This document shows positions 3,255-29,522 of a stretch of DNA of 64,000 bases, one piece after another. The DNA comes from Candidatus Aenigmatarchaeota archaeon (lineage in GTDB: Archaea > Aenigmatarchaeota > Aenigmatarchaeia > QMZS01), in assembly GCA_023134135.1 (NCBI GenBank), contig JAGLVB010000004.1, forward strand, positions 24,233-88,232, given 5' to 3'. Position 1 is the stretch's first letter. Each line of letters starts with the position of its first letter. The notes under the pieces are model-generated. The model saw only the letters and a program-made list of their open reading frames with translations. It was not told the DNA's origin and did no database searches. Both the position numbers and the translations under genes were made by a program.

Positions 3255-3275
3255 ATGAAAATAATGTGTTTAAAT

Positions 3276-12195: not shown

Positions 12196-12205
12196 CTGTA
12201 ATTTT

Positions 12206-12460: not shown

Positions 12461-12538
12461 AGAATATAAATGAACCGTACGATAAAATCGGACAGTTGAA
12501 ATATTTATAGGAATTAAAGAAGAATTTAAAAGTAAATT

Positions 12539-13399: not shown

Positions 13400-13428
13400 G
13401 GAGATGTTATCAAGATAGTGTAACAGAT

Positions 13429-13557
13429 AATTGAATAGAAAAGATGCTTGCGAACAAGTTCAGGATTGGAAGTATAATTGTTATAAAGAACAGGGAGAAT
13501 ACAATAAGTTTAATGGATTTTTCGCTCATAAAAATATTTGTTTTAAAATAGAGTTTG
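13429..13557. repeat. Direct repeat DR2, an orphan duplicate of the permease 5' end
   Basis: Near-identical to 12068-12195. On the minus strand it encodes an orphan MSEKSIKLIVFSLFFITIILPILNLFASIFSIQL fragment. Confidence 0.8.
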
Positions 13558-13580
13558 GATAATCCTTCTAAAGCAAGGAT

Positions 13581-14372
13581 TTAAATATTTAATTCTGTAG
13601 CTGCCAGTACATAAAGTTTACATAAATCATTTGCAAATTTATCTTCCAGTTTTTCGCAAGTTTTAGTATCTTTGGATATAGTGCCTATGCACCGGGCTCT
13701 TTCCATTTTAGATAAAATAGAATCGCATAAATCAAGGTTATTTTCCATAACAGCTCGTTGACTATAACATGCATCGGTTCCGCAATAACTGGAATCTTCT
13801 GACATTATTGCGTCACACAGGTCTTTTTCCTGAGGTTCTGAGATAATTTCTTCGCAATAGGAAGAGTTATTTTTAACAACAGCTAAACAGGTATATTTTG
13901 CGCTTTCATGTCCAATATCATCACAATTTTCTTCAGCATATAGTTTGTAATATTTGTAGGGTATATACAGGAAGCAGGATTCCAAAAAAGTTGGCGATTC
14001 TATATATTCTTCGCATATTGATGGATTTTTTTCTTTTAAAGCAACATTTGAGAAACAGATTGTTCTTTGAAAAGGGTCATTGATTTGATTGCATAATTCA
14101 ATATTGGCATTTTTCATTGTGGAGAAACGCCAACAAATTGATCTTAAATTACCCGCAAGGTCGCAATAAGTTGAATTGCCGGTGAAAAAAGAATAACATA
14201 TTATTTTTGTTTCAGGGTGGCTGAAATTATCGCACATTTCAATTTTAGTTATAGGTTCTAAATTATTTTGGTTTTTATTAGAATTCAAAGTTATCAAAAC
14301 AATTGCAATAATTATCAGAATAATTGAAACATATAAAATGTTTTTGTTCCTTTTTTTTATATCCTTTGACAT
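13581..14372 (-). CDS. Membrane-anchored cysteine-repeat protein (island unit A, gene 4)
   Basis: N-terminal TM helix, then tandem degenerate repeats of the form C-x2-I/L-x(6-9)-C-aromatic-x3-aliphatic-x(5-8)-C, e.g. LCDSILSKMERARCIGTISKDTKTCEKLEDKFANDLCKLYVLA. Paralog of 14375-15136. Confidence 0.55.
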   Translation of the reverse strand: MSKDIKKRNKNILYVSIILIIIAIVLITLNSNKNQNNLEPITKIEMCDNFSHPETKIICYSFFTGNSTYCDLAGNLRSICWRFSTMKNANIELCNQINDPFQRTICFSNVALKEKNPSICEEYIESPTFLESCFLYIPYKYYKLYAEENCDDIGHESAKYTCLAVVKNNSSYCEEIISEPQEKDLCDAIMSEDSSYCGTDACYSQRAVMENNLDLCDSILSKMERARCIGTISKDTKTCEKLEDKFANDLCKLYVLAATELNI

Positions 14373-14374
14373 AA

Positions 14375-15136
14375 TTATTCATAAAATAAATCTAAGTCTT
14401 TTCCCATAAAGAATATTTTGCAAAGGTCTTTTTCATCTTCAAGTTCATTGCAGTTTTCTATTTTATCTGACGCAAATGCCACGCATTTTGCTCTTAAAAA
14501 TTCTGTTGGTTCTTCAAGACAATAATTCCAGTCGCTGTTTTTTGAGACCAGAATTGCGCATAATGGATTAAGGAAACCCTGCTCATCTTTGCACATTCCA
14601 ATATTTTTTGAAAACAATGCTTTGCAGGTGGTTCTTTCATAATAATCTTCTATCTGGTCGCAATATCCTAAATCTTTGGTGACTTTTGCCAGACAGGTAT
14701 ATTTATTATAATCAATTTTTATCAGATTGCAGGATTCTATAGTAGAATAGAAAAAATAACAGGAATCTTCTTCACATAAACTTAAATCACTTTTTGATTT
14801 TGCAAGTTTTCTAAGACATATATTTTTAATGGAGTTGTCTTTTATTTCATTGCAGAATATTTCATTAACACCTATTTTAGATAAAATAGCTTTTGCGCAA
14901 CCGCTTTTATATTTTCCACCAAAATCATTGCAAATATTTAAATCTTTTGAAAGGGTTGCATAACAGATAGTTCTTAATTTGGGATATACAAATTCATCGC
15001 AAATATTTATTTCATCCGCAGGTTCTTCATGAATTTCAATGTTTTGCAAGGGCGAATTTAATAAAGAAAGTCCAATTATAATAGATAAGGTTATACATAT
15101 TATTGCAATTGCGAGGTATTTTTTATCCATAATCAT
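14375..15136 (-). CDS. Membrane-anchored cysteine-repeat protein (island unit A, gene 3)
   Basis: Same architecture and repeat as 13581-14372 (YCDQIEDYYERTTCKALFSKNIGMCKD, NCNELEDEKDLCKIFF). Its ATG overlaps the upstream stop (ATGA at 15133-15136). Confidence 0.55.
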   Translation of the reverse strand: MIMDKKYLAIAIICITLSIIIGLSLLNSPLQNIEIHEEPADEINICDEFVYPKLRTICYATLSKDLNICNDFGGKYKSGCAKAILSKIGVNEIFCNEIKDNSIKNICLRKLAKSKSDLSLCEEDSCYFFYSTIESCNLIKIDYNKYTCLAKVTKDLGYCDQIEDYYERTTCKALFSKNIGMCKDEQGFLNPLCAILVSKNSDWNYCLEEPTEFLRAKCVAFASDKIENCNELEDEKDLCKIFFMGKDLDLFYE

Positions 15137-16329
15137 GTTTTTACCGAAACAACACTCGTGTTGTAAGTAAATTCAATATTATACATTCCTTTTTGGGTAA
15201 TGTTTTCAAAATTAATTGGAAAGGTGCAATCCAGATTTTTGCAACTGTTCAACATACATAATTGATTGCCCTGATATAATATAGGATAAGTAAAATACAT
15301 ATCTCTTGTAATTATAAGTGTTTCGCTTGGATTTCTTTCAGCTTTTGCGCAGATATCTTCAATTAAACTTGAGATTGTTTCAAGTTCTCCTTTTACAGCA
15401 GTTATTTTTATTATTCCTTCCCTCATGGTGGTTTCATTGTATCTAATTGTAATAGGAAGCACAATCTGGATTTCTTCTTCTTTTGCATCATGCGGAGAAA
15501 ATGAAGATATTCCGCTAACAGGTAGATATGCAAACCCCCAGGATTTTTGTTTAATATCTGATGTAAAATTCACTCCATAGGGTTCTCGACTTGCAGTTAT
15601 AGTAAGACCGCACCATGCATGAATATGTCTTATAGTTATTTCAGTGCAATTTGTCGCCGGGTCAATATTATAACATTCCATCATCCATGGATGTGAATTG
15701 CAGGTCTTCCTTACGCAGCAGGCCATTTCAGAAGTGCCTTCATAAATTTTTTCGCATTCCTCTGATGATTTTATATATTGCGAACAATCATAAGGCGTAC
15801 ACACAACACTGCGACCTCCGCAGTTTAAGGTTCTTGGAAAACGTCCATCCAGTTCACCACCACCACAGCAACCCTCCAAATTACCATCACAATGAATATA
15901 TATTGTTGGTTGTCCATGGAAAGCTATGCTCCAGTTTGAATTCTCCGGGTCGCATTCCTTTTCTTTTATTTGCATTCCCTGGTAAGTCCGGAAATTCTTT
16001 TCAAATTGGATTATCTCAATATTATAATCAAAATCCATGGCTTTTGCGTATTTTGGTTCAAGACCCTGATAACTATTATTAAAATCCAGAATTTTATTGA
16101 TATCAAGATTTCCTTTTTGCGTTACATTGTTATATTCATAAGCCAGGCATTCCTTGGTATTTATAAGTTTCTGCAGAATTTCCAGAGAATCCATCCTAAG
16201 TTCAGAACTTTCTTTTTCTTCGATAGTTGTGACTTTTGACATCTGCGAGATAAGGATAATTGATGTGAATGCCAGAACAGATATAACTATTAAAATCGCT
16301 TTAATAAAAAAGTTCATTTGACCTCTCAT
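15133..16329 (-). CDS. Class III signal (pilin-like) cysteine-rich secreted protein (island unit A, gene 2)
   Basis: Start moved to the internal ATG at 16329 (MRGQMNFFIKAILIVISVLAF), one nt after the upstream gene's stop. The track's longer N-terminus overlaps that upstream gene. Cys-rich core: CDGNLEGCCGGGELDGRFPRTLNCGGRSVVCTPYDC. Confidence 0.55.
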   Translation of the reverse strand: MRGQMNFFIKAILIVISVLAFTSIILISQMSKVTTIEEKESSELRMDSLEILQKLINTKECLAYEYNNVTQKGNLDINKILDFNNSYQGLEPKYAKAMDFDYNIEIIQFEKNFRTYQGMQIKEKECDPENSNWSIAFHGQPTIYIHCDGNLEGCCGGGELDGRFPRTLNCGGRSVVCTPYDCSQYIKSSEECEKIYEGTSEMACCVRKTCNSHPWMMECYNIDPATNCTEITIRHIHAWCGLTITASREPYGVNFTSDIKQKSWGFAYLPVSGISSFSPHDAKEEEIQIVLPITIRYNETTMREGIIKITAVKGELETISSLIEDICAKAERNPSETLIITRDMYFTYPILYQGNQLCMLNSCKNLDCTFPINFENITQKGMYNIEFTYNTSVVSVKT

Positions 16330-16330
16330 A

Positions 16331-17536
16331 TTAACATCCGCACCCTGGGCAAGGGCATGTAGTGCAACAGCGGCAGGGATCTCTCCAGAAAGCAATAGCC
16401 CCAACCCTGAAAATCATAGGAACAGGTCCTTTATCTGAAGGGACATGGAAATAATTATCTGTGCAGACATATTGGTGCGATGTGGCAAATCTTGCTTCAT
16501 AATGACATAAACAATAAGACTGTGCATGCACAACAGGCAAAAGATTTAAATCAATATTACTAAGATATTCATTGATTTTATCATAATATCCCTGCAGGAT
16601 TACATTAGGCGCAGGGCAAATGGATGATGTTGGAGGAGGAGGAACGCATTCATGTTCGCAGGATGAACTGCAATCATTATCCCAGGGCAGGCAACCGCAA
16701 GGATATCCGCAAATAGGTCCGATTCCTTGAGTGCAACAAAGGTAAGGTTTTGTTCTAATACATTCCACTTCAGTTTCATTAAATCTTCTTTGCAAATCAT
16801 CCAAGGCAAGTTCACCGCATCGTTCTGAAGCGACTATACAATCACCTGTGCATTCTTCTTCCCCTGAACGAGCATCGCAGGCACAGCCTAATAAAGCGCA
16901 AACACAAGGGGAATAAACATCGTCTTCAGCCCATTCATGGAAAATTCTATGAAGGTACCAGTATCGATTTCTGGTTATAAATTCATCTATATTCATATCA
17001 TCATTAACAGTTGCTCCGCCGCCGGATACAGAAACTAAAGCTTCGGTAATATTTACCCAGAAATTTCCTTCATCATAATATTTAGGGTCATAAACTCCAA
17101 CTGGATCTAAAACTTCATCCGGGTCAACATCATATTCACAGGATGAAAAATTTTTCTTTATTATAGTGATAGGCGTGTCCAAAACAGAATAATTGCCAAG
17201 ATAAACATTAGCATAATATAAAGTGTATTTTTCAAGACAATCTATTGAATCTTCAACAGGAAAATTATTTGGTCCATTGCAAATCCACTCCTGCGCTCCT
17301 ATCTGTCCTCCAAGGCAGGCATGTTCTCTTAAACTCTGATGAGCAGAATAAATATTTGCCTGCTTTGAATATCCTTTAAGTCTTTCTATTTCATTTCTTA
17401 ATGTATCCACAGTATATCTTTCAGAGATACTTTCCTCGTATTTTGTCCCGTAAAATGCATTGTAAAAAAAGTAACTTAATAATACACTTCCAATCAATAA
17501 TATTAGAAATATAATAGGGAGTAGTTGCGCTTTCAT
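16331..17536 (-). CDS. Extremely cysteine-rich secreted/anchored protein (island unit A, gene 1)
   Basis: N-terminal hydrophobic helix MKAQLLPIIFLILLIGSVLL. By hand count, 31 Cys in 401 aa, clustered as CVCALLGCACD, CCTQGIGPICGYPCGCLPWDNDCSSSCEHEC and a C-terminal CRCCTTCPCPGCGC. Confidence 0.55.
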   Translation of the reverse strand: MKAQLLPIIFLILLIGSVLLSYFFYNAFYGTKYEESISERYTVDTLRNEIERLKGYSKQANIYSAHQSLREHACLGGQIGAQEWICNGPNNFPVEDSIDCLEKYTLYYANVYLGNYSVLDTPITIIKKNFSSCEYDVDPDEVLDPVGVYDPKYYDEGNFWVNITEALVSVSGGGATVNDDMNIDEFITRNRYWYLHRIFHEWAEDDVYSPCVCALLGCACDARSGEEECTGDCIVASERCGELALDDLQRRFNETEVECIRTKPYLCCTQGIGPICGYPCGCLPWDNDCSSSCEHECVPPPPTSSICPAPNVILQGYYDKINEYLSNIDLNLLPVVHAQSYCLCHYEARFATSHQYVCTDNYFHVPSDKGPVPMIFRVGAIAFWRDPCRCCTTCPCPGCGC

Positions 17537-17559
17537 AAATATAATATAGTTTAAATATT

Positions 17560-17991
17560 ATGGATATATCCAGCATCAGGATAAAAGAACGGGTGGCTGA
17601 GGAGTTTTATGATAAATTTACCCGCAGTTATCAACAAAATGATTTGCGAGAAGCATCAAAGAATTTGTGGGACTGCCTTAAACATTTGGTTTTGGGGTTG
17701 GGTTTTTGCAAGAATAAGGAATTAGGTGATAAGGATTTTATGGATTTTTTAAACGAATTTGAAACAGAGATTACGAAAGATGACATAAATACTATAAAAG
17801 CGATTCATATAAATTCCCTGAGAGGTGCGATGGATTCTGGAATGTTTGATATTTACAAAAGAAAAGTTGATATGTTGAGGAATAAATTAAAAAATATGAT
17901 TAAAGATTATCTAAGTTCCGGGAGTGAGTTGGATTCTGGAGAGGATATAATGGAAACTTCCAGTGATGAGAGTTCAGAAAATCACTCATAA
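17560..17991 (+). CDS. Hypothetical helical cytoplasmic protein with an acidic/serine-rich tail
   Basis: ORF divergent from island unit A. No signal peptide. Weak resemblance to archaeal PaREP1-like helical proteins (LREASKNLWDCLKHLV). Confidence 0.4.
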   Translation: MDISSIRIKERVAEEFYDKFTRSYQQNDLREASKNLWDCLKHLVLGLGFCKNKELGDKDFMDFLNEFETEITKDDINTIKAIHINSLRGAMDSGMFDIYKRKVDMLRNKLKNMIKDYLSSGSELDSGEDIMETSSDESSENHS

Positions 17992-18161
17992 AAAAGGAAA
18001 ACTGGAAGTAAATAAAGTATTTATAGTTTAAATACAATTATCATAATCATGTTTCAACAATTTGTAAGCAGGAACTAAATTTTTTAAAGTGCGATTATAA
18101 TAATTATGAATAAACAAAGCGTTATTTGGTGTTGCCCACTATAAATAAATACTTTTATACC

Positions 18162-18208
18162 TTCAATTACTAATTATGAAGGGCACAGTGGATGTTTGGA
18201 TATGGATT
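18162..18208 (+). promoter_or_regulatory. 47-bp block (-14 to +33 around the ATG) duplicated perfectly at 21966-22012
   Basis: ttcaattactaattatgaagggcacagtggatgtttggatatggatt is identical in both places. An upstream aatactttt(a/g)ta TATA-like box is also conserved. Confidence 0.5.
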
Positions 18209-19792
18209 CTCGGAGGAGTCCTCGCAGGTTTATTAATTCTTGCAATCGCAAATTCTTATCTTACGCAGACCACAAAAACAATAGCTGAACAAAGGTCTAT
18301 TGAGCAGCATGATGAATTGCGAACGCAGATAAATGAACTTTGCTGGAGTTCTTCGGAAAATAAAAAACAATATGCAATAGATTTAAATGAAAATGTGCTT
18401 GGTGTTTATTTGACAGAAGACAAATATGTTGAATATGATGAAACCCAGTTTATAGATTTTATTCTTGATGAAAATGTTTCTTCAGGCAATCTTTTATGCA
18501 TGAAGATAAGAGACAAAAGATTACTGTGCGAACAACTTGATTGCAATGCAAGGATGACTTTTTTAGGTTCAGTCCCAACAGAATCTTCATTATCCGCTTT
18601 GATAGATAATATTATAGGAAATCCCGGGTCTTTTGAATATAAATTAAGTTTTAGCAAGTTTGGCAAGGAGGTTTTGATAAGTGTTGTTGGAGGGAAAGAA
18701 GTATTGCCTGTTTGCAATCTTGATGGTTTCTGCAATAAGGATGAATGCAGGGATGATTGCGAAGATTGTTATGGTCCTAGTCCGGTTTGCATTGGAGATG
18801 ATTTTTGCAATAGAGATATTGGAGAGGATTGCTTAACTTCTTTAGATTGCATATGCAATGCGAGCGAAGGATATAATTGTTGCAAAGAAGACCCTGCTTC
18901 AGATGATTCAGGTTGCGTTGATGAAACCAGACAGAATTTATCAAAAGGAGAAGAATGTTTTTGCCAAAATGAATGCAATATAACAGCGAATCTTGTTTGC
19001 AGTCCTGTGGCTGTTACTTATATAGGACTTATGAAATCTGCTTGTTGCGAGCCTGGTTATGGTTGGAATGGGAGTGATTGCGTTATGTTGGATCCCTGCC
19101 TTACTTTTTCTTCTAAAGGTCCCGGTGTTGTTTTTGCAGGGGTAGTAACCACATTTAGTATACAAAAATACAGTTCTAGTTCCCAAACAATTTCAATGAT
19201 GATGTCAATAGATAATGTTGTTGCAATAGCCCTCGCTGAAGGAGTTAATAATCATCCTGAATGGGGTGTTACAACACCCGATTCTTTAAATGCAACACAG
19301 AGATTGCAGGCGATATTTGAATGGGAAACCGCTAATGTTGGTTATTTATGCGATCAAGCTGGTACAGCGTGTCCTCACAATTGTCCTGAATGCGCTGGAA
19401 ATATGGTCTGTTCCTGTTTGGCGGGTTTTAATTGTGCTGGCGGAGATATCTGGTTGTCAGGAGAAGATACAATTACATTAACTCCTTCTTGTTGCAATGC
19501 AGGACCTTATCAATACCACGGGGACTGCGATGATTATGCTCATTTATATATTAGCATGGCGAGAACTGCAGGGGTATCAGAAGATTGCGTTGCATGGAAA
19601 TGCGGACCGGGTCATGCATTTAATGCAGCAAAAATTAATGGAAGGTGGGAATATGTGGATGCCCAGGGAGGTCAGGGTTTATCCTGGAACCAGATGATGC
19701 AGAGCACAGGTTTTATCCGGGGTTGCAGCGGATTTGGAGCCCCTCATAGCGGGTATACAGATTATAATTATATGGATATATGCGGTACTTAA
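18176..19792 (+). CDS. Pilin-like N-terminal module + Cys-rich stalk + C-terminal transglutaminase-like cysteine-protease-fold domain (island unit B, gene 1)
   Basis: MKGTVDVWIWILGGVLAGLLIL leader. Stalk: CNLDGFCNKDECRDDCEDCYGPSPVCIGDDFCNRDIGEDCL. C-terminus HGDCDDYAHLYISMARTAGVSEDCVAW..GHAFNAAKINGRWEYVDAQ fits the Cys/His/Asp core of the transglutaminase-like superfamily. Confidence 0.6.
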   Translation: MKGTVDVWIWILGGVLAGLLILAIANSYLTQTTKTIAEQRSIEQHDELRTQINELCWSSSENKKQYAIDLNENVLGVYLTEDKYVEYDETQFIDFILDENVSSGNLLCMKIRDKRLLCEQLDCNARMTFLGSVPTESSLSALIDNIIGNPGSFEYKLSFSKFGKEVLISVVGGKEVLPVCNLDGFCNKDECRDDCEDCYGPSPVCIGDDFCNRDIGEDCLTSLDCICNASEGYNCCKEDPASDDSGCVDETRQNLSKGEECFCQNECNITANLVCSPVAVTYIGLMKSACCEPGYGWNGSDCVMLDPCLTFSSKGPGVVFAGVVTTFSIQKYSSSSQTISMMMSIDNVVAIALAEGVNNHPEWGVTTPDSLNATQRLQAIFEWETANVGYLCDQAGTACPHNCPECAGNMVCSCLAGFNCAGGDIWLSGEDTITLTPSCCNAGPYQYHGDCDDYAHLYISMARTAGVSEDCVAWKCGPGHAFNAAKINGRWEYVDAQGGQGLSWNQMMQSTGFIRGCSGFGAPHSGYTDYNYMDICGT

Positions 19793-19794
19793 TA

Positions 19795-21333
19795 ATGGAG
19801 GTTGAAAGATTGCGGGACTTTGGAATATTAATAATATTTTTATCAATGTTTTTTACAATAAATACTGTTTATGCCGGACTATATTATACCGGAGATATAT
19901 CTCTTGAGAATGAAAATGTTTTGATTAAAGTTGAATATGGAGATAATGATGCTATTTTAATTGCTAATTCCAGCTATACCCTGAAAAATAATGGAGAAGA
20001 TCAGGAAATTGAATATGGGTATTATGTATTTGGTCAATTTATTAATGGAGGTATTTTAACTTTAAGTGCGGGGGAGGAGAAGATAATATTTTTTAATACT
20101 TCAAAAGTTTTGCAGGATTCTTATACAATAAATATGGATTTTAATCTGATGTTGAGTGGAAAATATATTGGAACAAAAACACAGGAAGGCGAATTTATAA
20201 TTAAATATCCTTCAAAACCAACAATCATTTCAATGAACCCGCAACCAACTCATTCAACGGATTTGGAATTAATATGGAGTAAGACAGATTATATCCCGGT
20301 TTTTAATATTCTTGTTAGCTGGGTAAAAGAAGAGATTAATGTTGATTTAAAAAAAGAGATTATTCCTTCAACTCTTCTGAAGAATGATGTTTTTACAGTT
20401 AAATCAATTATTAAAAATAATGATAATGTGGGTTATAAATATATTATTACGGATATTTACTCAACTGATTTTTATGAACCTGTAGATAAAACATATTTTG
20501 AGGAATTGATACCAGAAAGTCCCATGGAACCAAGTTACTGGAAATTTGAAAGAGAACTTGAAATTGGTTCCAATGAAGAAAAAGTTTTTGAATATCAGTT
20601 GGAATTTTTAGGGGCTAAAGGAATAAGCGAAATGGAGATACCCCCTTTTAATTTCTTTATTTCCGATAAAAACTTTTATAAATATTCAAATAAGGTGGGT
20701 GTGCTTGTAAATGTCTGCAATTTTAACAATATATGTGAAATTGAACTGGATGAATATTATCTAAATTGCCCTCAAGACTGCGTTTCAGGTTCAGTAGATG
20801 GATATTGCGATGGTATTGCGGATGGGATATGCGATGAAGATTGCTTAGCGCAGTCTATTCCCGAGTTAGATTCTGATTGTTCTTCATGCGGGGATGGCAA
20901 ATGCGATTTAGGAGAAACACGGGAAAACTGTTGCGTTGATTGCGGTTGCATTGGTGGAATGAAATGCCAGGACAATAAATGCGTTAAAACAGAAATATGC
21001 GGTGATGGAACCTGTTCAATACATGAAACTTATGAAAAATGCAAAGAGGATTGCCCTTCAGGCTCAAAAGATAATTATTGCGATAAAGTGGAAGATAATA
21101 TCTGCGACCCTGATTGCGCCCGAACCAGAGATGTGGATTGCTTGTGCAATAAAGATGGTATTTGCGAATCCAACTTTGAGACAAATTCAAATTGTCCCGA
21201 AGACTGTGAGTCAGATAACACCATAATATATTTAATCCTCGGATCAATTGCCCTAATTTCAATTATAATTTACTTAAGAAACCGTTCCAAAAAAACAAAA
21301 TGGAAGGAAATCTATGAGGAAACTTCAAACTAA
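19795..21333 (+). CDS. Secreted, C-terminally membrane-anchored protein with CARDB/DUF11-like beta domains and CGDGxC Cys-rich modules (island unit B, gene 2)
   Basis: Signal MEVERLRDFGILIIFLSMFFTINTVYA. Modules CGDGKCDLGETRENCCVDCGC, CGDGTCSIHETYEKCKEDC and CNKDGICESNFETNSNCPEDC. C-terminal TM IIYLILGSIALISIIIYL plus a basic tail. An alternative start at 19780 overlaps the upstream stop. Confidence 0.6.
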   Translation: MEVERLRDFGILIIFLSMFFTINTVYAGLYYTGDISLENENVLIKVEYGDNDAILIANSSYTLKNNGEDQEIEYGYYVFGQFINGGILTLSAGEEKIIFFNTSKVLQDSYTINMDFNLMLSGKYIGTKTQEGEFIIKYPSKPTIISMNPQPTHSTDLELIWSKTDYIPVFNILVSWVKEEINVDLKKEIIPSTLLKNDVFTVKSIIKNNDNVGYKYIITDIYSTDFYEPVDKTYFEELIPESPMEPSYWKFERELEIGSNEEKVFEYQLEFLGAKGISEMEIPPFNFFISDKNFYKYSNKVGVLVNVCNFNNICEIELDEYYLNCPQDCVSGSVDGYCDGIADGICDEDCLAQSIPELDSDCSSCGDGKCDLGETRENCCVDCGCIGGMKCQDNKCVKTEICGDGTCSIHETYEKCKEDCPSGSKDNYCDKVEDNICDPDCARTRDVDCLCNKDGICESNFETNSNCPEDCESDNTIIYLILGSIALISIIIYLRNRSKKTKWKEIYEETSN

Positions 21334-21365
21334 TTTAAATTTTGAAAGAGTTTATATTTAATGAG

Positions 21366-21928
21366 GGCCAAGAACTCACTGTGCTCTTGGCACAGGGCTG
21401 AATTGGCAACAGACGCAGAACTTTGCTAAAAAGATGCAGTAATTTTATGAAAGAAAAAAACGGGTTATGGCGTTGGTATCATAACATATCCGAATGTTAT
21501 TATCACCTACAAATCACGGTAAAATACAGGAAATCATTATTAGATAAAAGAACCGAGAAAATTATTCTTGAAACTCTAAAAGAATTCCCTGAGAGATATG
21601 ATATTGAAGTACAGGAAATTGGTTTTGATCAAAACCATGTGCATATATTATGCAGATTTTTACCGAAATATTCTGGAGGATAAATAATAAGAGTAATCAA
21701 AAGCAGAACAGCCCAAAATATATTCAGAGAAATCCCTGAAATAAAGAAGGAATTATGGGGAGGAGAATTTTGGACTGATGGTTATTACATAGCAACAATA
21801 AGCGGACGAGGGAACAAGAAAGTAATTGAGGAATATATAAGAAAACAGGGAAGAGAAGAAACTATAAAACAACTGAAATTGTTTGAGATTTAATTGGGAC
21901 GCCCTGTGCTCTTGGCACAGGGAATTTC
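21366..21928 (+). mobile_element. IS200/IS605-family element (tnpA only) with subterminal hairpins
   Basis: Hairpins ctgtgc-tcttg-gcacag at 21379-21397 and ccctgtgc-tcttg-gcacaggg at 21902-21922 bracket a Y1-transposase ORF. Confidence 0.7.
21447..21893 (+). pseudogene. tnpA: IS200-type Y1 transposase TnpA interrupted by an in-frame TAA
   Basis: MKEKNGLWRWYHNISECYYHLQITVKYRK...HVHILCRFLPKYSGG-TAA(21681-21683)-IIRVIKSRTAQNIFREIPEIKKELWGGEFWTDGYYIATISGRG. The same frame continues after the stop. Collinear with the intact TnpA at 41414-41845. Confidence 0.7.
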
Positions 21929-21979
21929 ACAATGAATTTTGAATTTAAGCAAATACTTTTGTATATTCAATTACTAATT

Positions 21980-22495
21980 ATGAAGGGCACAGTGGATGTT
22001 TGGATATGGATTGTTGCAGGTATTATAGCAGGCTTATTAATTTTAACTTTGGCTTATTCTTATTCACTCCAGATGATAAATACAACAATTGAACAAAATG
22101 TTTTAGAACAATATGATGAATTATACACACAAACAAATGAACTCTGTTGGAGTTATTTAGGAAACCAAAAAGAGTATAATCTGATTTTAAACAAAAACAT
22201 TCTTGGAATTTATTTAACCTCGAATCAATATTTGGAATACAATGGCTCGCAGTTAATAGATTATATTCTCGAAGAAAATGTCTCTTCAGGGAATTTTTTA
22301 TGCATAAAAATAAAAAATAAAAAAATCATCTGTAAACAATTTGATTGCAATGCGACGATGCCTTTTTTAGGCGCAGTCCCTATAGAATTTTCATTAAAAT
22401 CTCTAATTAATCAGATAAAAGGCAACCCGGAATCTTTTGAATATAATTTAGTGCTTAAAAGAGATAAGGTAGGTGTTAATATTTCCAAAAGATGA
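21980..22495 (+). CDS. Stand-alone pilin-like module, paralog of residues 1-170 of the 18176 product (island unit C, gene 1)
   Basis: MKGTVDVWIWIVAGIIAGLLILTL..NELCWS..ENVSSGNFLCIKIKNKKIICKQFDCNATMPFLGAVP is collinear with the N-terminus of the 18176 protein. Start set at the ATG shared by the 47-bp duplicated block (the track starts at 21932). Confidence 0.6.
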   Translation: MKGTVDVWIWIVAGIIAGLLILTLAYSYSLQMINTTIEQNVLEQYDELYTQTNELCWSYLGNQKEYNLILNKNILGIYLTSNQYLEYNGSQLIDYILEENVSSGNFLCIKIKNKKIICKQFDCNATMPFLGAVPIEFSLKSLINQIKGNPESFEYNLVLKRDKVGVNISKR

Positions 22496-22523
22496 ATTAA
22501 TATACATATATCCCAATTTATAT

Positions 22524-24362
22524 ATGGGGATTGATAATTATATCTTGATGATTGGTTCAATTTTGGTTGGCCTGATACTTTTCTTTGCGGCTCAGGTTTA
22601 TCTTACAGGCAGCGTTGATGAAACCGAGGGTTATATTGCAAAAGGATCTGCTGAAAGGATTGTGTCTGTGCTTGAAAAATTAACAGGAGAACCTTCATAT
22701 GCAAGTTATTGTTTCAACATTTCCCTTTCTGATTTGAAAGTTGAGAATGGTTACCTGACTTTCAGGCAGGGTGGAAAGGAATCTTTTTATCCGGTGCCAA
22801 AGGAAGCTAATAATGTTGATTTAAAAGAAATCGCAAGTGTTTGTTTTGTGCATTTGGCAGACGGGGAAATAATTATTTCTGAGGAACTTCCGGATTGCGA
22901 TATGAACACAATTTGCGCTGCTGATGAATGCTTTGAAAATTGTCCTGATTGTTATGGTCCGGATTTATTGTGTATTGGTGATGGGTTTTGCAATATAGAT
23001 ATAGGTGAAAATTGTCTAAATTCACCAGATTGTATTTGTAATGTTAGCGGTTCTAATCCAGTATGTTGCCCTGAGGACCCTTATTCAGATGAATCCGGTT
23101 GCGTTAATGAAACCCGACTTAACAGGTCGAAAGGCGAAGAATGTTTTTGCGACAATGAATGTAATATAACTCTTAACTGTAACCCCACTTCACCAACTTT
23201 TTATGGTTATGCTAAGGCATGTTGCGATCCAGGAAAGAGCTGGAATGGGACTAATTGTACTTGGGGTGGAGATGTTTTAATAGTTGCTTTAAAATCTAAT
23301 ATGGAAAGTGCTTATCCCGGACAATTAACCTTATTTGAAAACAAGATTAGAGCTTATCAGTCTGCATTGGGTGGTGATGGTCTTGGTTCAATCTTCCTTT
23401 ATCTTGACGAAGATGAAACTTCAGATATAATTGGAAGCAAAGTTACAAACCCAGATAACTGGAATAATATAGATGGCATTCTTGACCAGTTGATTCCAAA
23501 ATTAAATTCATCTTATCTTGTGATAATTGGAGGGTATGGTAGATTTATCCAACCTCATGCAGGATCTGCTTATGGGAAACCATTTGAATCAGATAATTTT
23601 TATGGGGATCTTACTGGAGACAATATATTGGATATTCCTGTTGGAAGATTTCCTGACCCGAATAATGGGGATTTGGATGTTATTTTGAATGCTTTGGATA
23701 CAAGTATTTCATTGCATAATTCTGGAGGGGTTGATATTTCAAACCATATTGCTCCAATAATGAGTTGCGGGGGTTTTGATAATCGGGCATGGACGAGTGG
23801 AAGATGTTTCTGTTCTGCGGTATGGGGTGGTTCTTGTTCTGCATGCGGCACTTGTTGCGGTTGCATATCTTTAGCTCCGCTTTCAGGAAAAGATTTTGTA
23901 ATGGTTCTTGCTCATGGACCTGGACCTTCAAGTGGCGATTTATTGCATGGAGGGTGTTTAAATACAAATCCAACTGGAGTTGCGGGGATTGATACTTCAA
24001 ATTCGGTTTGGATGTCCATGTCCTGCGGCGGGGGTCATTTAAGACTAAAATCATCAACTTCAGGTTCTATTGTTATGACATTTCTAAAGAATGACGGTGC
24101 AATCTATTTTGGGAGTACTGCTAACAACAGGGGAACTCTTGGTGGTGGGTGCCCTGTCCCTGGCGGAGATAGGCTTATAGGAACTTTATATACTTTGGTA
24201 GCAAACAATTTTCAGGTAAATATAGGAACCGGTGTTGGGAACAGGATTGGTGATTATTATATGGCAGGGAAAAATAGTTACTGGAGCGATTATGGCAATA
24301 GAGAATATATTATTAACTGTCTTTATGGAGACCCAACTTTGAAAATTAAGAATATGTGGTAA
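22524..24362 (+). CDS. TM/pilin-like N-terminus + Cys-rich stalk + C-terminal peptidase C25 (gingipain)-like clan CD domain (island unit C, gene 2)
   Basis: MGIDNYILMIGSILVGLILFFAA. Stalk CDMNTICAADECFENCPDCYGPDLLCIGDGFCNIDIGENCL is homologous to the 18176 stalk. C25-like blocks: YLVIIGGYGRFIQP, SDNFYGDLTGDNILDIPVGRFP, VMVLAHGPG (His) and WMSMSCGGG (Cys). An alternative start at 22473 would overlap the upstream gene. Confidence 0.55.
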   Translation: MGIDNYILMIGSILVGLILFFAAQVYLTGSVDETEGYIAKGSAERIVSVLEKLTGEPSYASYCFNISLSDLKVENGYLTFRQGGKESFYPVPKEANNVDLKEIASVCFVHLADGEIIISEELPDCDMNTICAADECFENCPDCYGPDLLCIGDGFCNIDIGENCLNSPDCICNVSGSNPVCCPEDPYSDESGCVNETRLNRSKGEECFCDNECNITLNCNPTSPTFYGYAKACCDPGKSWNGTNCTWGGDVLIVALKSNMESAYPGQLTLFENKIRAYQSALGGDGLGSIFLYLDEDETSDIIGSKVTNPDNWNNIDGILDQLIPKLNSSYLVIIGGYGRFIQPHAGSAYGKPFESDNFYGDLTGDNILDIPVGRFPDPNNGDLDVILNALDTSISLHNSGGVDISNHIAPIMSCGGFDNRAWTSGRCFCSAVWGGSCSACGTCCGCISLAPLSGKDFVMVLAHGPGPSSGDLLHGGCLNTNPTGVAGIDTSNSVWMSMSCGGGHLRLKSSTSGSIVMTFLKNDGAIYFGSTANNRGTLGGGCPVPGGDRLIGTLYTLVANNFQVNIGTGVGNRIGDYYMAGKNSYWSDYGNREYIINCLYGDPTLKIKNMW

Positions 24363-24363
24363 T

Positions 24364-25212
24364 ATGATTATGCAATATGATATTGGGGAAGAAAAAAATA
24401 TGAGAGAAATAAGCAAGAATCAATTCATTGCGGTTTTTATAATTATAGGTGTTATAGTAGCCATTTTTTTAATATTTAATTTTACAAGGGAATCCTGCGG
24501 AAACAGTATCTGTGAACAGGGAGAAAACTGTTTTGATTGTCCAAAGGATTGCAAATGCAATGAAGATAAATATTGCTCCTCAACAGAAAAGAAATGTATA
24601 AAACCAATCTGCGGAGATAAAACTTGTGAAAGGCTGGAAAATTGTTCCAATTGCCCTGTTGATTGCGGAGCTTGTAAGATTACTTCATTTTGCGGAGATA
24701 ATAAATGCGATGCAGATGAATTATGTTCAACATGTCCAAGGGATTGCGGTATCTGCCAATCGACATATATTTGCGGAAACAAGGTTTGTGAAAAAGAAGA
24801 AAATTGTTATGATTGTCCAAAGGATTGCAAGTGCGGAGTTGAAGAATATTGTTCTTCAACAGAAAAAAAGTGCTTAAAACCAACCTGTGGAAATGGTGAC
24901 TGCGAACCTTATGAAAATCCCGGTAATTGTTGTCTTGATTGCGCTTGTTATACTCCTGAGGAAATCTGCAATAAAGCAACCAAAAAATGCGAGTTGCAGA
25001 AGATGATTCTTACAGATGCAAGAGCGATTGAACTGGCGATTGAATATTTTGAGAATCAGAGTTTGGAGGTGATTTCCGCGGAGGTTATGGGGGTTAGTTC
25101 TTATAATCATAAATTGGTTAAAGAAGTTGGAGTTGAAATTACTGGAGAAGAATGGAATAGGTATATTGGAATTACTGAAGATGAAGAAATAACCGAATTT
25201 GTATTGCCTTAG
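24364..25212 (+). CDS. Membrane-anchored protein made of five CG(D/N)xxCE..EnC..CP.DC modules plus a C-terminal alpha/beta domain (island unit C, gene 3)
   Basis: CGNSICEQGENCFDCPKDCKC, CGDKTCERLENCSNCPVDCGAC, CGDNKCDADELCSTCPRDCGIC, CGNKVCEKEENCYDCPKDCKC, CGNGDCEPYENPGNCCLDCAC. There is an internal duplication of the first two modules. Confidence 0.6.
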   Translation: MIMQYDIGEEKNMREISKNQFIAVFIIIGVIVAIFLIFNFTRESCGNSICEQGENCFDCPKDCKCNEDKYCSSTEKKCIKPICGDKTCERLENCSNCPVDCGACKITSFCGDNKCDADELCSTCPRDCGICQSTYICGNKVCEKEENCYDCPKDCKCGVEEYCSSTEKKCLKPTCGNGDCEPYENPGNCCLDCACYTPEEICNKATKKCELQKMILTDARAIELAIEYFENQSLEVISAEVMGVSSYNHKLVKEVGVEITGEEWNRYIGITEDEEITEFVLP

Positions 25213-25313: not shown

Positions 25314-26276
25314 ATGGCAAATATGAGTTTAGAAACTATTGTTGGTTTTATAATTTTACTCGTTGTTGCCGGAGTGATTATTAGCATGATTCTTACACGA
25401 ATCAGTCCAGATTCATTGCCTTATAAAGAAATTGAAATGCAGCAGATGGATTTTAAAAATAAATGCGATGCTTTGTGCACGGCCACTTCTTCATTGGATT
25501 ATTGCAGATCTTATTTTGAAGGCGGAGCAGACGGCACTGATTGGGATGGAAATGGTGGGAAGAATGAACTTATTTCAATTGGAGATTATGTTACCTGGGA
25601 TGTATGCGAGGAAAGGATTTATTGTTTTTCAATGGTTTCCTGCGACAGGAGATTTGGTTCAAGTCCTGCAAAAGGTTGCGCCAGCGCTTTATGTCAGGCT
25701 TATTTAGATAAATACAAAGGGAATGTTATAAAAGCAAATGAGGCGGTTTTGGACAAAGTAAAACCAGGAAATTGTCAATTACCCTCAGATATAGAGGATA
25801 ATTGGTTTGCGAAATATTTCCCTGCTGATGTTTGCGGTTGTGATTGTACTCCTTGGAATGATATAGGTTGTGGTTCTGTTTTTGGTTGTAATATTGGAGA
25901 AATGTATCAAAACAGAACATGTGCTCCTGATGGTTGTAGAGAAAATATAACCAGATGCATATCTCATCCTGATTGCATTCCAATTTTATCATTTTGCGCT
26001 TATGACAACATAGGTGATAATATTCTTTGCAATACAAATTGCAAAAATGCCACACCATCTTATACAAATATAACAGTAACTGATCAGGATGGTGATAGCG
26101 CCTCTGCATGGATAAATGGGGTTAGTATAGGGAGTATAACCTTTTTAACCAATCAAATAAATTTTTCTACATCTCCTCTACTTTCTACTTTGAATACAAC
26201 AAATACTTCATTATGGAATGTAACTTTAATTTGTGCTAATCCTATTGGAACTGCAATACTTACAGGAGTTAGTTAG
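25314..26276 (+). CDS. Class III signal (pilin-like) Cys-rich protein, paralog of 29523-30131 (island unit C, gene 4)
   Basis: MANMSLETIVGFIILLVVAGVIISMIL. The block CDALCTATSSLDYCRSYF..DWDGNGGKNELISIGDYVTWDVCEERIYCF..GCASALCQAY aligns with the 29523 product. Confidence 0.55.
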   Translation: MANMSLETIVGFIILLVVAGVIISMILTRISPDSLPYKEIEMQQMDFKNKCDALCTATSSLDYCRSYFEGGADGTDWDGNGGKNELISIGDYVTWDVCEERIYCFSMVSCDRRFGSSPAKGCASALCQAYLDKYKGNVIKANEAVLDKVKPGNCQLPSDIEDNWFAKYFPADVCGCDCTPWNDIGCGSVFGCNIGEMYQNRTCAPDGCRENITRCISHPDCIPILSFCAYDNIGDNILCNTNCKNATPSYTNITVTDQDGDSASAWINGVSIGSITFLTNQINFSTSPLLSTLNTTNTSLWNVTLICANPIGTAILTGVS

Positions 26277-26698: not shown

Positions 26699-28714
26699 AT
26701 GAAGATTAAAATTGTTTCAATGAAGTTAATTTTGGTTTCTCTATTATTTCTAATTCTTACAACCCCAACTTTTGCAAACAGTATCAATTGTTCCCAGTGT
26801 TCTATAAACCAACAATGCACCTGCGAATTAAAGTTGGATGAAGGAACCTGCACAGATGGTCTATGGATAGTTTTAAAAAGCGAAGGAAATCCGTTGCAAA
26901 TTCAGGTAGTCGCAGATATCCCTCCAATAAATATAAGTTTCACCCCAACCGGAGAAGGAAAAATAAAGATAAATGGTTACTGTTTCAGCACCCCAATGCC
27001 TGTTATTTTAGAAAAGGAAATTAATATCAAAGCTTCATTCCTCCAGTGTCCAACAACCTGTAAAATTGGAGACTCTTGTTCTTGTTCAGTAAACAATTGC
27101 ACTGATGGTCTATATGTAATAATTAACAAAGTAAACAATCCTGTTGATTATAATATTTATCCTTATTTAAGCACTATTGCAACTGACCCTTATATAAATA
27201 TTTTCAAAGCAAAAGAAAATGGGACCGTTGGAATTGTTGCAGCCTGCTTCAGCCCGTTGCCAACAAAATCCACAACTGCTGATATAATTATTGGCGGAGG
27301 TCAGGTTCAACAATGCACAACACATCAGGATTGTGATGATTCAAATCCCTGCACTTCAGATATTTGTGATTCTAATGGACAATGTTTAAATACACCGATA
27401 ACTGCATGTATCAACAGTGATGGATGTTGCCCTTCAGGTTGCACTTCCACGAATGATAATGATTGCAGTCCAAATCCTACTGAGATTTGCAATAATGGAA
27501 TAGATGATGATGGAGATGGATGTATTGATACAGTTGATTCAGATTGTGGTGGAACAGAAACTAATTGTACTGATGGAATTGATAATGATTGTGATGGACA
27601 AATAGATGGTACTGATTCTGATTGCAGTCCAACACCAACCTGTTCAATAAATTCAGACTGTGATGATTCAAATCCCTGCACTTCAGATATTTGTGATTCT
27701 AATGGACAATGTTTAAATACACCGATAACTGCATGTATCAACAGTGATGGATGTTGCCCTTCAGGTTGCACTTCATCAAATGATAATGATTGCCCGACGC
27801 AATGTAAATTTCAGTTAACTTCAGATTCAACTCTGCAGGACAGACCTTCTTTGATATATGATGGAGGTAATTATTATCTTGCTTATCAATCTTGGGAGAC
27901 TGGAGATTCATTCAATGGAGATATATTTATAAAGAAATTTGATTCTGGTTGGAATGAACTTAAAAAAGTTAGGGTTACTTCAGAGAGTTCTTATCAGGAT
28001 TCCCCTTCTTTAATTATTGTCAATAATACTATATATATTGCTTATGTTTCAAATGAGACAGGACTTTGGGATATTTTTGTTAAACAATATAACTTAGATT
28101 TTAATGAATTAAAAAAGAAAATATTGACAACAAATTTATCTAATCAGGATTTACCTTCTTTGATATATGATGGAGGTAATTATTATCTTGCTTATCAATC
28201 TTGGGAGACTGGAGATTCATTCAATGGAGATATATTTATAAAGAAATTTGATTCTGGTTGGAATGAACTTAAAAAAGTTAGGGTTACTTCAGAGAGTTCT
28301 TATCAAGATAGACCTTCATTGAGATTTATTGATGGGTTTTATTATATAGTTTATTATTCAAGTGAGGTAGGAAATTATGATATTTTTATAAAAAGACTGG
28401 GTTTAAATTTAAATTTAGATGCTTCTTTTAAAAAACAGATTACTTTAGATTCATCCAGTCAATCATTTCCTTCCATTTATTTTAATAAAAATTATGTGAT
28501 AACTTATGCATCTAATGAAAGGGGCACTTTAGGTATTTTTATGAAAACTTATGATATTAATTGGAATTTTATTAATAAATCCTTAGTAATAGATGATAAT
28601 TCTTTTCACGAGAGAAGATCCAATTCAATATTTAATGCACCTAATAGTTGGGTGGTTTATACAGCCAATAAATTAGGCAATTCTGACTGGAATTTGTTTG
28701 CTATAAAGATATAA
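26699..28714 (+). CDS. Secreted mosaic protein: beta-sandwich-like N-terminus, duplicated Cys-rich modules, CxDGxDxDCDG metal-binding-like motifs and a C-terminal PD40/TolB-like beta-propeller repeat region (island unit C, gene 6)
   Basis: Signal MKLILVSLLFLILTTPTFA. Modules CDDSNPCTSDICDSNGQCLNTPITACINSDGCCPSGC x2, CNNGIDDDGDGCIDTVDSDC and CTDGIDNDCDGQIDGTDSDC. About six ~50-aa repeats of the type QD.PSL....YY.AY.S.E.G..DIF.K. Confidence 0.6.
   Translation: MKIKIVSMKLILVSLLFLILTTPTFANSINCSQCSINQQCTCELKLDEGTCTDGLWIVLKSEGNPLQIQVVADIPPINISFTPTGEGKIKINGYCFSTPMPVILEKEINIKASFLQCPTTCKIGDSCSCSVNNCTDGLYVIINKVNNPVDYNIYPYLSTIATDPYINIFKAKENGTVGIVAACFSPLPTKSTTADIIIGGGQVQQCTTHQDCDDSNPCTSDICDSNGQCLNTPITACINSDGCCPSGCTSTNDNDCSPNPTEICNNGIDDDGDGCIDTVDSDCGGTETNCTDGIDNDCDGQIDGTDSDCSPTPTCSINSDCDDSNPCTSDICDSNGQCLNTPITACINSDGCCPSGCTSSNDNDCPTQCKFQLTSDSTLQDRPSLIYDGGNYYLAYQSWETGDSFNGDIFIKKFDSGWNELKKVRVTSESSYQDSPSLIIVNNTIYIAYVSNETGLWDIFVKQYNLDFNELKKKILTTNLSNQDLPSLIYDGGNYYLAYQSWETGDSFNGDIFIKKFDSGWNELKKVRVTSESSYQDRPSLRFIDGFYYIVYYSSEVGNYDIFIKRLGLNLNLDASFKKQITLDSSSQSFPSIYFNKNYVITYASNERGTLGIFMKTYDINWNFINKSLVIDDNSFHERRSNSIFNAPNSWVVYTANKLGNSDWNLFAIKI
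27332..27447 (+). repeat. 116-bp perfect intragenic direct repeat, copy 1 (copy 2 at 27659-27774)
   Basis: Identical sequence tgtgatgattcaaatccctgcacttcag...ccttcaggttgcacttc with an in-frame offset of 327 bp. Confidence 0.85.
27659..27774 (+). repeat. 116-bp perfect intragenic direct repeat, copy 2
   Basis: Identical to 27332-27447. Confidence 0.85.
27844..27996 (+). repeat. 153-bp perfect intragenic direct repeat, copy 1 (copy 2 at 28153-28305)
   Basis: accttctttgatatatgatggaggtaattattatcttgc...cagagagttcttatca is identical with an in-frame offset of 309 bp (two propeller-like repeat units). Confidence 0.85.
28153..28305 (+). repeat. 153-bp perfect intragenic direct repeat, copy 2
   Basis: Identical to 27844-27996. 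Confidence 0.85.
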
Positions 28715-29492: not shown

Positions 29493-29522
29493 AATATAGT
29501 TTAAATAAATAGAAAATAAAAA

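Follow-up and report, generated by a model that had tools for sequence, protein, structure and literature searches.

Type IV pilins that carry an additional functional module are known from bacteria, with PilB (a von Willebrand factor A, or vWA, module) and PilC (a lectin module) of Streptococcus sanguinis as described cases (Raynaud et al. 2021, PMC8179133). A survey of such bacterial modular pilins, restricted to the IPR012902 signature, found many architectures, one class of them with a peptidase domain (PMC8179133). In archaea, surface peptidases of the transglutaminase (TGase) family (arCOG02164, arCOG09555, arCOG03450) show an unexplained genomic link to type IV pilus (T4P) loci (Makarova et al. 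2016, PMC4858521), and archaeal examples of polymorphic toxins are mentioned in PMC6393860. Here we describe a locus in a 64-kb stretch of DNA (64,000 nt, contig JAGLVB010000004.1 of assembly GCA_023134135.1, positions 24,233 to 88,232; hereafter the window) from a metagenome-assembled genome (MAG) of the uncultured DPANN lineage Candidatus Aenigmarchaeota. Two of its genes, A and E, encode pilin-like proteins of three parts that end in different protease-like heads. Our reading, to which we give a probability of about 0.6, is that A and E are modular pilin-like proteins displaying proteases on the cell surface or on a pilus, that these proteases are exchanged as cassettes, and that each goes with a cognate partner encoded next to it. 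The modular exchange is well supported; filament assembly, the role of the partner and the substrates of the heads we infer.

Gene A (18176-19792, plus strand, 538 aa) encodes a pilin-like module (aa 1 to ~165, nt 18176-18670), a Cys-rich stalk (aa 176-302, nt 18701-19081) and a TGase-like head (aa 303-538, nt 19082-19792). Gene E (22524-24362, plus strand, 612 aa) has a pilin-like module of a second type (aa 1-120, nt 22524-22883), a stalk (aa 121-245, nt 22884-23258) and a head with a C25, or gingipain, fold (aa 246-612, nt 23259-24362). Just upstream of E lies gene D (21980-22495, plus strand, 171 aa), a small stand-alone pilin-like protein whose first 161 residues align without gaps to the first 161 of A (59% identity, E=3e-63); we therefore refer to D-type and E-type modules. 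The stalk regions of the two large proteins (A aa 165-305, E aa 115-245) are 52% identical (E=1e-45), rising to 61% for the stalk alone by tblastn, and the same kind of search found two stalks and two D-type modules in the window and no others. An alignment of 14 stalks has 20 invariant Cys within ~120 residues and closes with the motif CC.PG..WNG[ST].C. The original prediction, made from the letters of the window alone, had divided A into these three parts, called D a paralog of A's first module and the stalks homologous, and reported that the first 33 nt of A and D, with the 14 nt upstream, are identical. All of this is borne out, including each sequence motif quoted for A and the 47-nt identity, which is exact.

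The heads carried by this stalk vary widely, and the junction always lies directly after CC.PG..WNG[ST].C. On the A-type carrier we found TGase heads (A, P0002, P0003), papain C1 heads (P0004, P0005; Pfam E=1e-29 to 1e-34) and an HExxH zincin (P0006); on the E-type carrier there are C25 heads, C1 heads (P0054, P0062), a second TGase-like type (P0063) and zincins of two types (P0064 for one, P0057 and P0066 for the other). Across all matches of a stalk profile the heads comprise C1, many HExxH variants, three TGase-like types and C25. Every head is peptidase-like and none has a prodomain in cis; since the mature-domain motif (LPDDFDWR...) begins immediately after the stalk, the C1 heads lack the I29 propeptide.

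Comparison of related loci located the limits of the exchanged unit. L001 (GCA_030614705.1) shares synteny with the window but has a C1 head on the gene that takes A's place; nucleotide homology between the two (79%) stops exactly at 19080, in the last stalk codon, and resumes at 20747 inside gene B, the next gene downstream of A. Between L004 (TGase head) and L005 (C1 head) the flanks agree at 96.9% and 98.6% identity, yet the 1.3-1.8 kb that they enclose are unrelated. L010 adds a third allele (zincin-1) between flanks that are 94-97% identical, and its cassette is homologous (67%) to one found on an E-type carrier in L008. These breakpoints imply that the exchanged unit consists of the head plus the N-terminal domain of the following gene, with the end of the stalk as one bound and the conserved Cys-rich repeats of the downstream protein as the other. 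That head and downstream N-domain are replaced together, as one cassette, between near-identical strains is well supported. The idea that conserved modules carry alternative enzymatic heads, which had been put forward from A and E alone together with the advice to survey related genomes for further variants, thus proved correct and reaches further than proposed: C25, papain C1, three TGase-like types and many HExxH zincins sit on this stalk, and near-identical strains carry a TGase, C1 or zincin head at A's locus.

The same heads also occur on other scaffolds. Proteins of Altiarchaeota carry TGase heads (P0007-P0009), which are 62-65% identical to that of A, and C25 heads (P0049, P0052, P0056). 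As these homologous heads sit on a different carrier, heads move between scaffolds and between phyla, and on sequence similarity they appear to pass between DPANN and Altiarchaeota lineages and between two kinds of 'pilin' carrier.

A smaller exchange seems to have affected the beginning of A. The identical 47-nt run (18162-18208 and 21966-22012, being 14 nt upstream plus the first 33 nt of each gene) is not a chance match, since the surrounding DNA of the A and D regions is only ~65-72% identical. In relatives the longest identical run in the same gene pair is 16 nt (L004) or 13 nt (L001). The first 33 nt of A and the region upstream (18120-18208, compared with 21946-22012) resemble the D-type genes of relatives and not their A-type orthologs, and we accordingly read the tract as a short gene conversion, confined to this genome, with a D-type gene as donor and A as recipient.

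The gene following the head, which we term its partner, has the same plan at all loci examined: a signal peptide, a variable N-domain, conserved Cys-rich repeats (consensus CP.DCPSG..DGYCDG..DGICDPDC) and a C-terminal transmembrane (TM) anchor, except that after C25 heads a variant like gene F takes its place. Gene B (19780-21333, plus strand, 517 aa), the partner of A's TGase head, has a signal peptide and a head-specific, beta-rich N-domain of ~310 aa (nt 19780 to ~20746), which was seen only beside TGase heads (in the window and in L004). The remainder of B (nt ~20747-21333) contains the conserved repeats and the TM anchor, and this C-terminal third is common to the partners of other heads. 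Gene F (24364-25212, plus strand, 282 aa), which follows E, begins with a TM segment and continues with Cys-rich repeats and a small alpha/beta C-terminal domain of ~80 aa, whose PepSY-like look by eye was not backed by any match in Pfam and is given no weight; it also holds an internal duplication (24496-24618 and 24772-24894, 79% identical). F-type genes follow the C25 gene in L001, L002 and L004. The C25 partner is 282 aa long in the window and 190 aa in L004 (5767-6339), so the number of its Cys-rich repeats varies.

Overall the partners are membrane-anchored, extracellular proteins of 190-517 aa, and an all-versus-all BLAST of 12 of them showed that their N-domains cluster strictly by the type of the upstream head, whichever pilin module that head is joined to. 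One instance is a DUF333 (PF03891) protein, which follows the C1 head in 8/8 loci (L001, L002, L005, L009, L011, L014, L016, L017) and never occurs at TGase, zincin or C25 loci. Given this coupling to the head, the missing prodomains and the anchoring of the partner on the producer's own surface, the most economical hypothesis is that each partner is a cognate binder or inhibitor of its head; DUF333 would possibly be an inhibitor or binder of C1 peptidases.

The C25 assignment of E's head is firm. Pfam finds Peptidase_C25 (PF01364) at 37.8 bits against a cut-off of 23 (E=1.8e-9), the homologs of E are annotated as C25, and the motifs YLVIIGG (331), SDNFYGD (356), DIPVGRFP (370), VLAHGPG (461) and SMSCGGG (498) are all present. 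A search of E against PDB sequences with phmmer gave no match. From 28 homologs AlphaFold2 (AF2) produced a confident model of E, with a mean predicted local distance difference test score (pLDDT) of 88, and a Foldseek search with the C-terminal 367 residues placed gingipains at the top: RgpB (4ief, E=2.7e-12), Kgp (4rbm, 7e-11) and 1cvr (3e-10), the gingipain matches ranging from E=2.7e-12 to 9e-10 with probability 1.00. Below these came other members of clan CD, namely separase, CHAT/Craspase, legumain and caspases. In clan CD the catalytic His and Cys each follow a hydrophobic beta-strand. Here E and 39 homologs, 40 sequences in all, share H464-G465 and C501 without exception, and H464 and C501 each follow a predicted strand (458-462 and 495-498); we propose them, from alignment and model, as the catalytic dyad (H464, nt 23913-23915; C501, nt 24024-24026). 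The C25 domain of the original prediction is thereby confirmed three ways, by a Pfam score above cut-off, by the gingipain-fold match and by the invariant His-Gly/Cys pair.

Its TGase-like head for A fared less evenly. The motifs GDCDDYA (449), GHAFNA (479) and YVDAQ (493) are present, and C451, H480 and D495 are invariant in six aligned sequences with this type of head (A included), one of them only 27% identical. Transglut_core (PF01841) scores 20.7 bits in A (E=5e-4), just under the cut-off of 23, and 24.5 bits, above it, in the head of P0007, which is 63% identical to that of A. A profile of the head had as its best PDB match a TGase-like protein, 9crn_A, whose Cys, His and Asp line up with those of the head, at an E-value of only 0.14. 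The NCBI protein that is 100% identical to the product of A is named 'transglutaminase domain-containing protein [Candidatus Aenigmarchaeota archaeon]'. A TGase core is expected to have its Cys at the start of a helix, with His and Asp on the strands that follow. In the model of A a helix (451-464) starts at the Cys, and the strands after it carry His and Asp, at a pLDDT of 40-64 in this region. Since the model is poor and the fold search made with it uninformative, the TGase assignment rests on sequence. Thus the invariant triad, the score of P0007 and the alignment to 9crn_A speak for the predicted head, while A's own Pfam score is sub-threshold and its model adds little, and the TGase-like identity is shown less firmly than the C25 identity of E. 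The proposed triad is C451 (19526-19528), H480 (19613-19615) and D495 (19658-19660).

The stalk joining these heads to their modules belongs to a rare family: a stalk profile run against 1.84 billion representative proteins retrieved 90 clusters, 28 of them at E<=1e-30, and a pattern-limited scan of GTDB recovered it from Aenigmatarchaeota genomes only (12/12 loci). Some members of the family carry two tandem stalks, and no NCBIfam model matches any of these proteins. Both stalks of the window (18701-19081 and 22884-23258) contain conserved N-x-S/T sequons (CN[AVT]S, NLS/NRS, CNIT, WNG[ST]), and a gene for an STT3/AglB oligosaccharyltransferase (6183-7574) lies 11 kb upstream of them; for these two reasons N-glycosylation of the stalk is probable. 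The unit at the C-terminal end of the stalk (~45 aa; GEEC.C...C...L.CNP....ACCP.G..WNG..C) recurs as 6-10 tandem repeats in large secreted proteins that are not pilin-like (P0106, P0112, P0118), which suggests that an older repeat module gave rise to the stalk. One of these repeat proteins (P0118) ends in a TGase head of the type found in A.

A type IV pilin has the shape of a 'lollipop', with a long alpha-1 helix and a small antiparallel beta-sheet domain. AF2 predicts this plan, an alpha-1 helix of ~50 residues plus a small sheet, for both large proteins: in E a 52-residue helix (3-54) and a five-strand sheet (60-119) at pLDDT ~78-93, in A a helix (5-56) and strands (63-176) at pLDDT 62-85 with gaps. 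The best PDB match of an E-family profile is the type IV pilin PilE1, at a marginal E=0.043 that is consistent with a pilin and no proof of one; a profile of the D-type module had no match among PDB sequences. The D/A type and the E type are related only remotely, with an hhalign probability of 94.8% (E=5e-8) that covers the helix region only. Pilin status of the N-module would thus be structural and contextual, resting on the predicted fold and the gene neighbourhood, and in these respects the module fits a 'modular pilin' in the sense of Raynaud et al. 2021.

The N-termini differ between the two types. D-type proteins begin MK[GA]/[TVI].[ED].W, and the shared start of D and A (MKG/TVDVWIWI...) fits a pilin N-terminus with a charged leader. 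Class III leaders are kept by distant members of the stalk family (for example MKNKG/SMSEYIIVAG, NKG/VSTLGEF, NKG/VSTLGEFIVLIG and KKG/ATLTNFVLLIG). E-type starts are leaderless, with MG or MS.. straight before the E-[FY] hydrophobic stretch, both in the window (22524-22560) and in P0013, P0015, P0054, P0057 and P0062-64. E and its nearest relatives have lost the charged leader, and the E-type proteins of this clade may be plain signal anchors or else pilins that, having no leader, can do without a prepilin peptidase.

Gene order helps to explain how A arose. A small pilin-like gene (~116-185 aa) followed by a pilin-stalk-head gene and then a partner gene recurs in 11 stalk loci, taken from GTDB species representatives and differing in their upstream neighbours, as well as on a number of metagenome contigs. 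In five loci (L004, L006, L008, L009, L011) the small gene proved to be D-type; it is divergently oriented in L006 and L007 and not adjacent in L015. Only close relatives (at least 71% identity) share the architecture of A, in which a D-type module runs straight into the stalk, and because the D-then-E order is widespread we regard A as a derived, lineage-specific chimera. It is best read as the product of a duplicated operon in which residues 1-161 of a second D gene (D') were joined to the stalk of a second E-type gene (E'). In other genomes the D-type module is joined through a Thr-rich linker, without a stalk, to a C25 head (P0065, P0067), which shows that N-modules are shuffled too. A part of the original prediction that did not survive is the statement that the arrangement of A recurs downstream 'in split form': where only a hydrophobic N-terminus had been noted, E has its own complete pilin-like module, only remotely related to the D/A type. 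The reading of D and E as a broken copy of A was also rejected, E's module being complete and well predicted and the D-then-E order being conserved in distant genomes.

At least eight further genes with pilin-type N-termini surround A and E (13.5-33.6 kb). Downstream of F comes gene G (25314-26276, plus strand, 320 aa), which is Cys-rich and pilin-like (MANMSLETIVGFIILL...) and whose ortholog in L002 starts MNKG/QMSLETIVGF. Two small genes on the minus strand (29007-30131) have canonical class III, prepilin-type N-termini (29007-29492, MKG/ISEEFMYLVV...; 29523-30131, MKKG/QMSLEMVIGLV...), and two small pilin-like genes on the plus strand (32647-33590) start MGKG/IGINVVVAM... and MKKG/DLALDTIVSW.... 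On the other side of A, four Cys-rich secreted or pilin-like genes occupy 13581-17536 on the minus strand; one of them (16331-17536) starts MKA/QLLPIIF and another (15133-16404) has an internal MRG/QMNFFIKAIL. Between the two small pairs lies a gene for a candidate TadC/FlaJ-like pilus platform protein (30184-32262, plus strand, 692 aa, ~8 TM segments predicted from hydropathy), whose T2SSF match (PF00482) is full-length and weak (E=0.0076, 16.7 bits, cut-off 25.2). A T2SSF-like gene of this kind also adjoins the stalk locus in L002 and L006. Farther off, a gene on the minus strand (60148-61674) encodes a HerA/DUF87-type, TrwB/FtsK-like P-loop ATPase with a hydrophobic C-terminal region, which is not a pilus ATPase of the T2SSE type.

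In the reading that we favour, A and E consist of three exchangeable parts, a type IV pilin-like module, a disulfide-knotted stalk and a C-terminal protease head. The pilin module would anchor the protein in the membrane and probably also build it, together with the D-type pilin, into or onto the tip of a short T4P-like filament. The glycosylated stalk would keep the protease away from the cell, and the head would cleave external or host-surface proteins, serving nutrient scavenging or host interaction in a DPANN archaeon with a reduced genome. The C-terminally anchored partner would bind the head cognate to it and, most plausibly, stand in for the missing prodomain as an inhibitor or guard acting in trans, and recombination at the conserved flanks would shuffle head-partner cassettes and so generate polymorphism at the level of strains. 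A bolder version can be offered only tentatively. It holds that these are strain-variable proteases on pilus-like filaments, exchanged together with a cognate membrane-anchored trans-inhibitor ('immunity') domain, so as to form an archaeal polymorphic ecto-protease/immunity system directed at host or competitor surfaces, with DUF333 as a family of inhibitors for propeptide-less C1 peptidases.

Several observations count against the favoured reading. The charged leader is missing from E and its close relatives (MG/IDNY..., MSSTEF...), which might be simple signal-anchored proteins. A pilus ATPase (T2SSE) and a prepilin peptidase were sought in the 64-kb window and neither was found, and the platform assignment of the 692-aa protein is a sub-threshold T2SSF match. 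The AF2 model of A, made from a shallow alignment of 13 sequences, has low confidence (pLDDT 58), and the Foldseek search with it returned OB-fold noise only (E>0.008) and was set aside. On the side of the partners, B and the DUF333 domain gave nothing meaningful against the PDB, and a literature search on the function of DUF333 returned only DUF333x look-alikes and incidental mentions; with no match of either kind for DUF333 or the other partner domains, an inhibitory role is purely conjectural.

The leaderless E-type starts and the lack of a pilus ATPase and prepilin peptidase in the window are what one would expect if A and E were signal-anchored ectoproteases and not pilus subunits, the N-terminal helix serving as a type II anchor and the beta-domain and stalk as a spacer through the S-layer; head exchange would occur all the same. 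Class III-type signals are moreover known on proteins that do not form filaments, such as those of the Sulfolobus bindosome (cited in PMC4858521). We nevertheless consider this explanation rather unlikely. AF2 predicts the pilin 'lollipop', with its ~52-residue alpha-1 helix and beta-sheet, at good confidence; distant members of the family keep canonical prepilin leaders; a D-type pilin gene (MK[GA]/...) is conserved directly upstream; and the locus is packed with pilin-type genes and includes the T2SSF-like polytopic protein.

A second explanation takes the resemblance to toxins literally: the heads would be toxins delivered by a pilus in conflicts between archaea, and the downstream partner an immunity protein that guards kin. 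In its favour, the N-terminal carrier stays constant while the enzymatic domain at the C-terminus varies, heads are swapped at a conserved junction, the next gene downstream co-varies strictly with them, and near-identical strains have several alleles at one locus. It is made improbable by the nature of both components, since the heads come from secreted degradative protease families (C25, C1, metzincin-like) with no typical toxin domain among them, and the partners (190-517 aa) are large, extracellular, membrane-anchored and Cys-rich, not small cytoplasmic immunity proteins. Within the window there are no orphan head or immunity cassettes downstream, and no known machinery for delivering polymorphic toxins is present.

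Alternatively, the heads could act on the cell's own surface, where they would process, cross-link (in the case of the transglutaminase) or turn over pilins or the S-layer, with the partner as substrate or scaffold. The genes do sit inside a pilin cluster, and pilin processing or degradation has been proposed for the TGase-family surface peptidases linked to archaeal T4P loci (PMC4858521). We think this quite improbable: housekeeping maturation does not predict that at least four unrelated protease families should be interchangeable at one locus in near-identical strains, nor that the same heads should appear on the unrelated scaffolds of Altiarchaeota. Lastly, an artefact is largely refuted and retains hardly any credibility, be it a chance likeness between Cys-rich sequences of low complexity or a chimeric joining of metagenome assemblies at the stalk. 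All sequences do come from MAGs or metagenomes and the stalk is a repeated element within each genome, but the 20 invariant Cys stay in register and E-values lie between 1e-43 and 1e-63, three independent assemblies contain the TGase cassette and two the C1 cassette, each of them with both junctions, mis-joining of k-mers is unlikely because the paralogous stalks are only 71-80% identical in DNA, and flank identities of 94-99%, not 100%, indicate different populations, so that assembly chimeras were rejected.

The remainder of the window is likewise archaeal in character. It has a G+C content of ~33% and encodes the archaeal markers RadA, AglB/STT3, a SepRS/PheRS-like synthetase and a YchF-type GTPase; searches for tRNA and Rfam RNA across the window found none. 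An IS200/IS605-type insertion (21363-21949, plus strand) separates B from D and is no part of the pilin-protease system; neither L001 nor L004, both syntenic here, has it. The element is bordered at 21374-21397 and 21899-21922 by direct repeats that contain a hairpin (CTGTGCTCTTGGCACAG), and its TnpA (Y1_Tnp) frame (21423-21893) is broken by an in-frame TAA at 21681-21683, which could make it a pseudogene or could be a recoded stop. A block holding the ATP-binding cassette (ABC) permease and the four Cys-rich pilin-like genes (10600-17991) is inverted relative to L001 (3765-9883), and in the window this block has an extra gene for a solute-binding protein and an extra Bro-N gene. Bro-N domains usually occur in viruses and mobile elements. 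The window encodes three paralogous Bro-N proteins (3255-4118, 12539-13399, 54098-54922), the third of which lies near genes for an MvaI/BcnI-type restriction endonuclease (56256-57002) and a DNA methylase (57271-58557). Between G and the small minus-strand pilin-type genes, 26699-28714 encodes a 671-aa secreted protein with two near-identical internal repeats both of a Cys-rich unit (QCTTHQDCDDSNPCTSDICDSNGQCLNTPITACINSDGCCPSGCTS) and of a beta-propeller-like unit, and with a weak GH43-like match (30.6 bits, cut-off 32.2); its orthologs are far longer, 1311 aa in L002 and 1178 aa in L004.

The searchable literature held no description of the stalk family, of DPANN pilin-protease fusions or of the link between DUF333 and C1 peptidases, and searches on Aenigmarchaeota pilin proteases, DPANN polymorphic toxins and Cys-rich pilus proteins likewise did not bring up the system. 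DPANN archaea have tiny genomes and depend obligately on other cells, and their contact with partners is largely unexplained. A pilin-anchored, glycosylated and disulfide-rich stalk with interchangeable proteases would be a candidate apparatus for host interaction or nutrient scavenging in this group, and locus-specific cassette exchange between near-identical strains would likewise be a candidate feature of such a role. For DUF333 the locus provides a functional hypothesis, that of a cognate binder or inhibitor of propeptide-less papain-like proteases.

Each of the known systems shares part of this design. The closest in kind are the modular pilins of bacteria, in which a small N-terminal pilin module likewise has a functional module grafted onto it via a linker. 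The proteins described here differ in being archaeal, in placing a dedicated 20-Cys stalk between module and effector, in having proteases of at least four families as their only effectors, and in swapping each head, at one locus, as a cassette that includes part of the next gene; their incorporation into a filament is predicted only. With them the 'modular pilin' idea, so far bacterial, reaches archaea, and its modules come to include a whole range of proteases besides those for adhesion. The arCOG02164, arCOG09555 and arCOG03450 peptidases resemble A, with its proposed triad, in having a TGase-core Cys/His/Asp domain associated with archaeal T4P genes; they are separate proteins of methanogens, whereas A has its domain in one chain with a pilin-like module and stalk, where other proteases can take its place. 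The Sulfolobus bindosome also uses pilin-type N-termini for the surface localisation or assembly of extracellular proteins (PMC4858521), but these are sugar-binding proteins with neither stalk nor protease, and no cassette polymorphism has been described for them.

Other comparisons concern the heads. The Altiarchaeota proteins have heads clearly homologous to those of A and E on a carrier made of a Sec signal, a Cys-rich region, a T4SS_pilin (TrbC/VirB2-like) domain and PKD domains, without the 20-Cys stalk. The gingipains RgpB and Kgp of Porphyromonas gingivalis (MEROPS C25, clan CD) have the same fold as the head of E and, like it, a conserved His-Gly...Cys pair, at ~12-15% sequence identity. 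In contrast to them, E has no N-terminal prodomain, no C-terminal domain of the type IX secretion system (T9SS) and no haemagglutinin/adhesin domains, and it is fused to a pilin-like carrier in an archaeon.

Polymorphic toxin systems of the CdiA/Rhs/MafB type, reportedly described by Zhang, Aravind and colleagues in 2012, provide the nearest match in logic. They too combine a conserved N-terminal carrier with a hypervariable C-terminal enzyme joined at a conserved motif, and they too have a co-varying gene immediately downstream and allelic diversity between strains. The heads of A and E differ in being peptidases of secretory type and not nucleases, deaminases or pore formers; the partner is large and surface-anchored, no arrays of orphan cassettes were found, and delivery would depend on a pilin-like scaffold. 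The original prediction had likened A and E to such systems, which holds for the logic of carrier and head and gains strength from the co-varying neighbour, a feature that the prediction had not noticed. The likeness fails beyond this, as neither a toxin function nor a small immunity protein was found, nor any orphan cassettes in the window. Altogether, the locus works like a polymorphic toxin system and should not be filed as one: it is toxin-like in logic only, and it places the logic of a polymorphic effector, a variable head with a co-varying neighbour, outside the classical toxin families.

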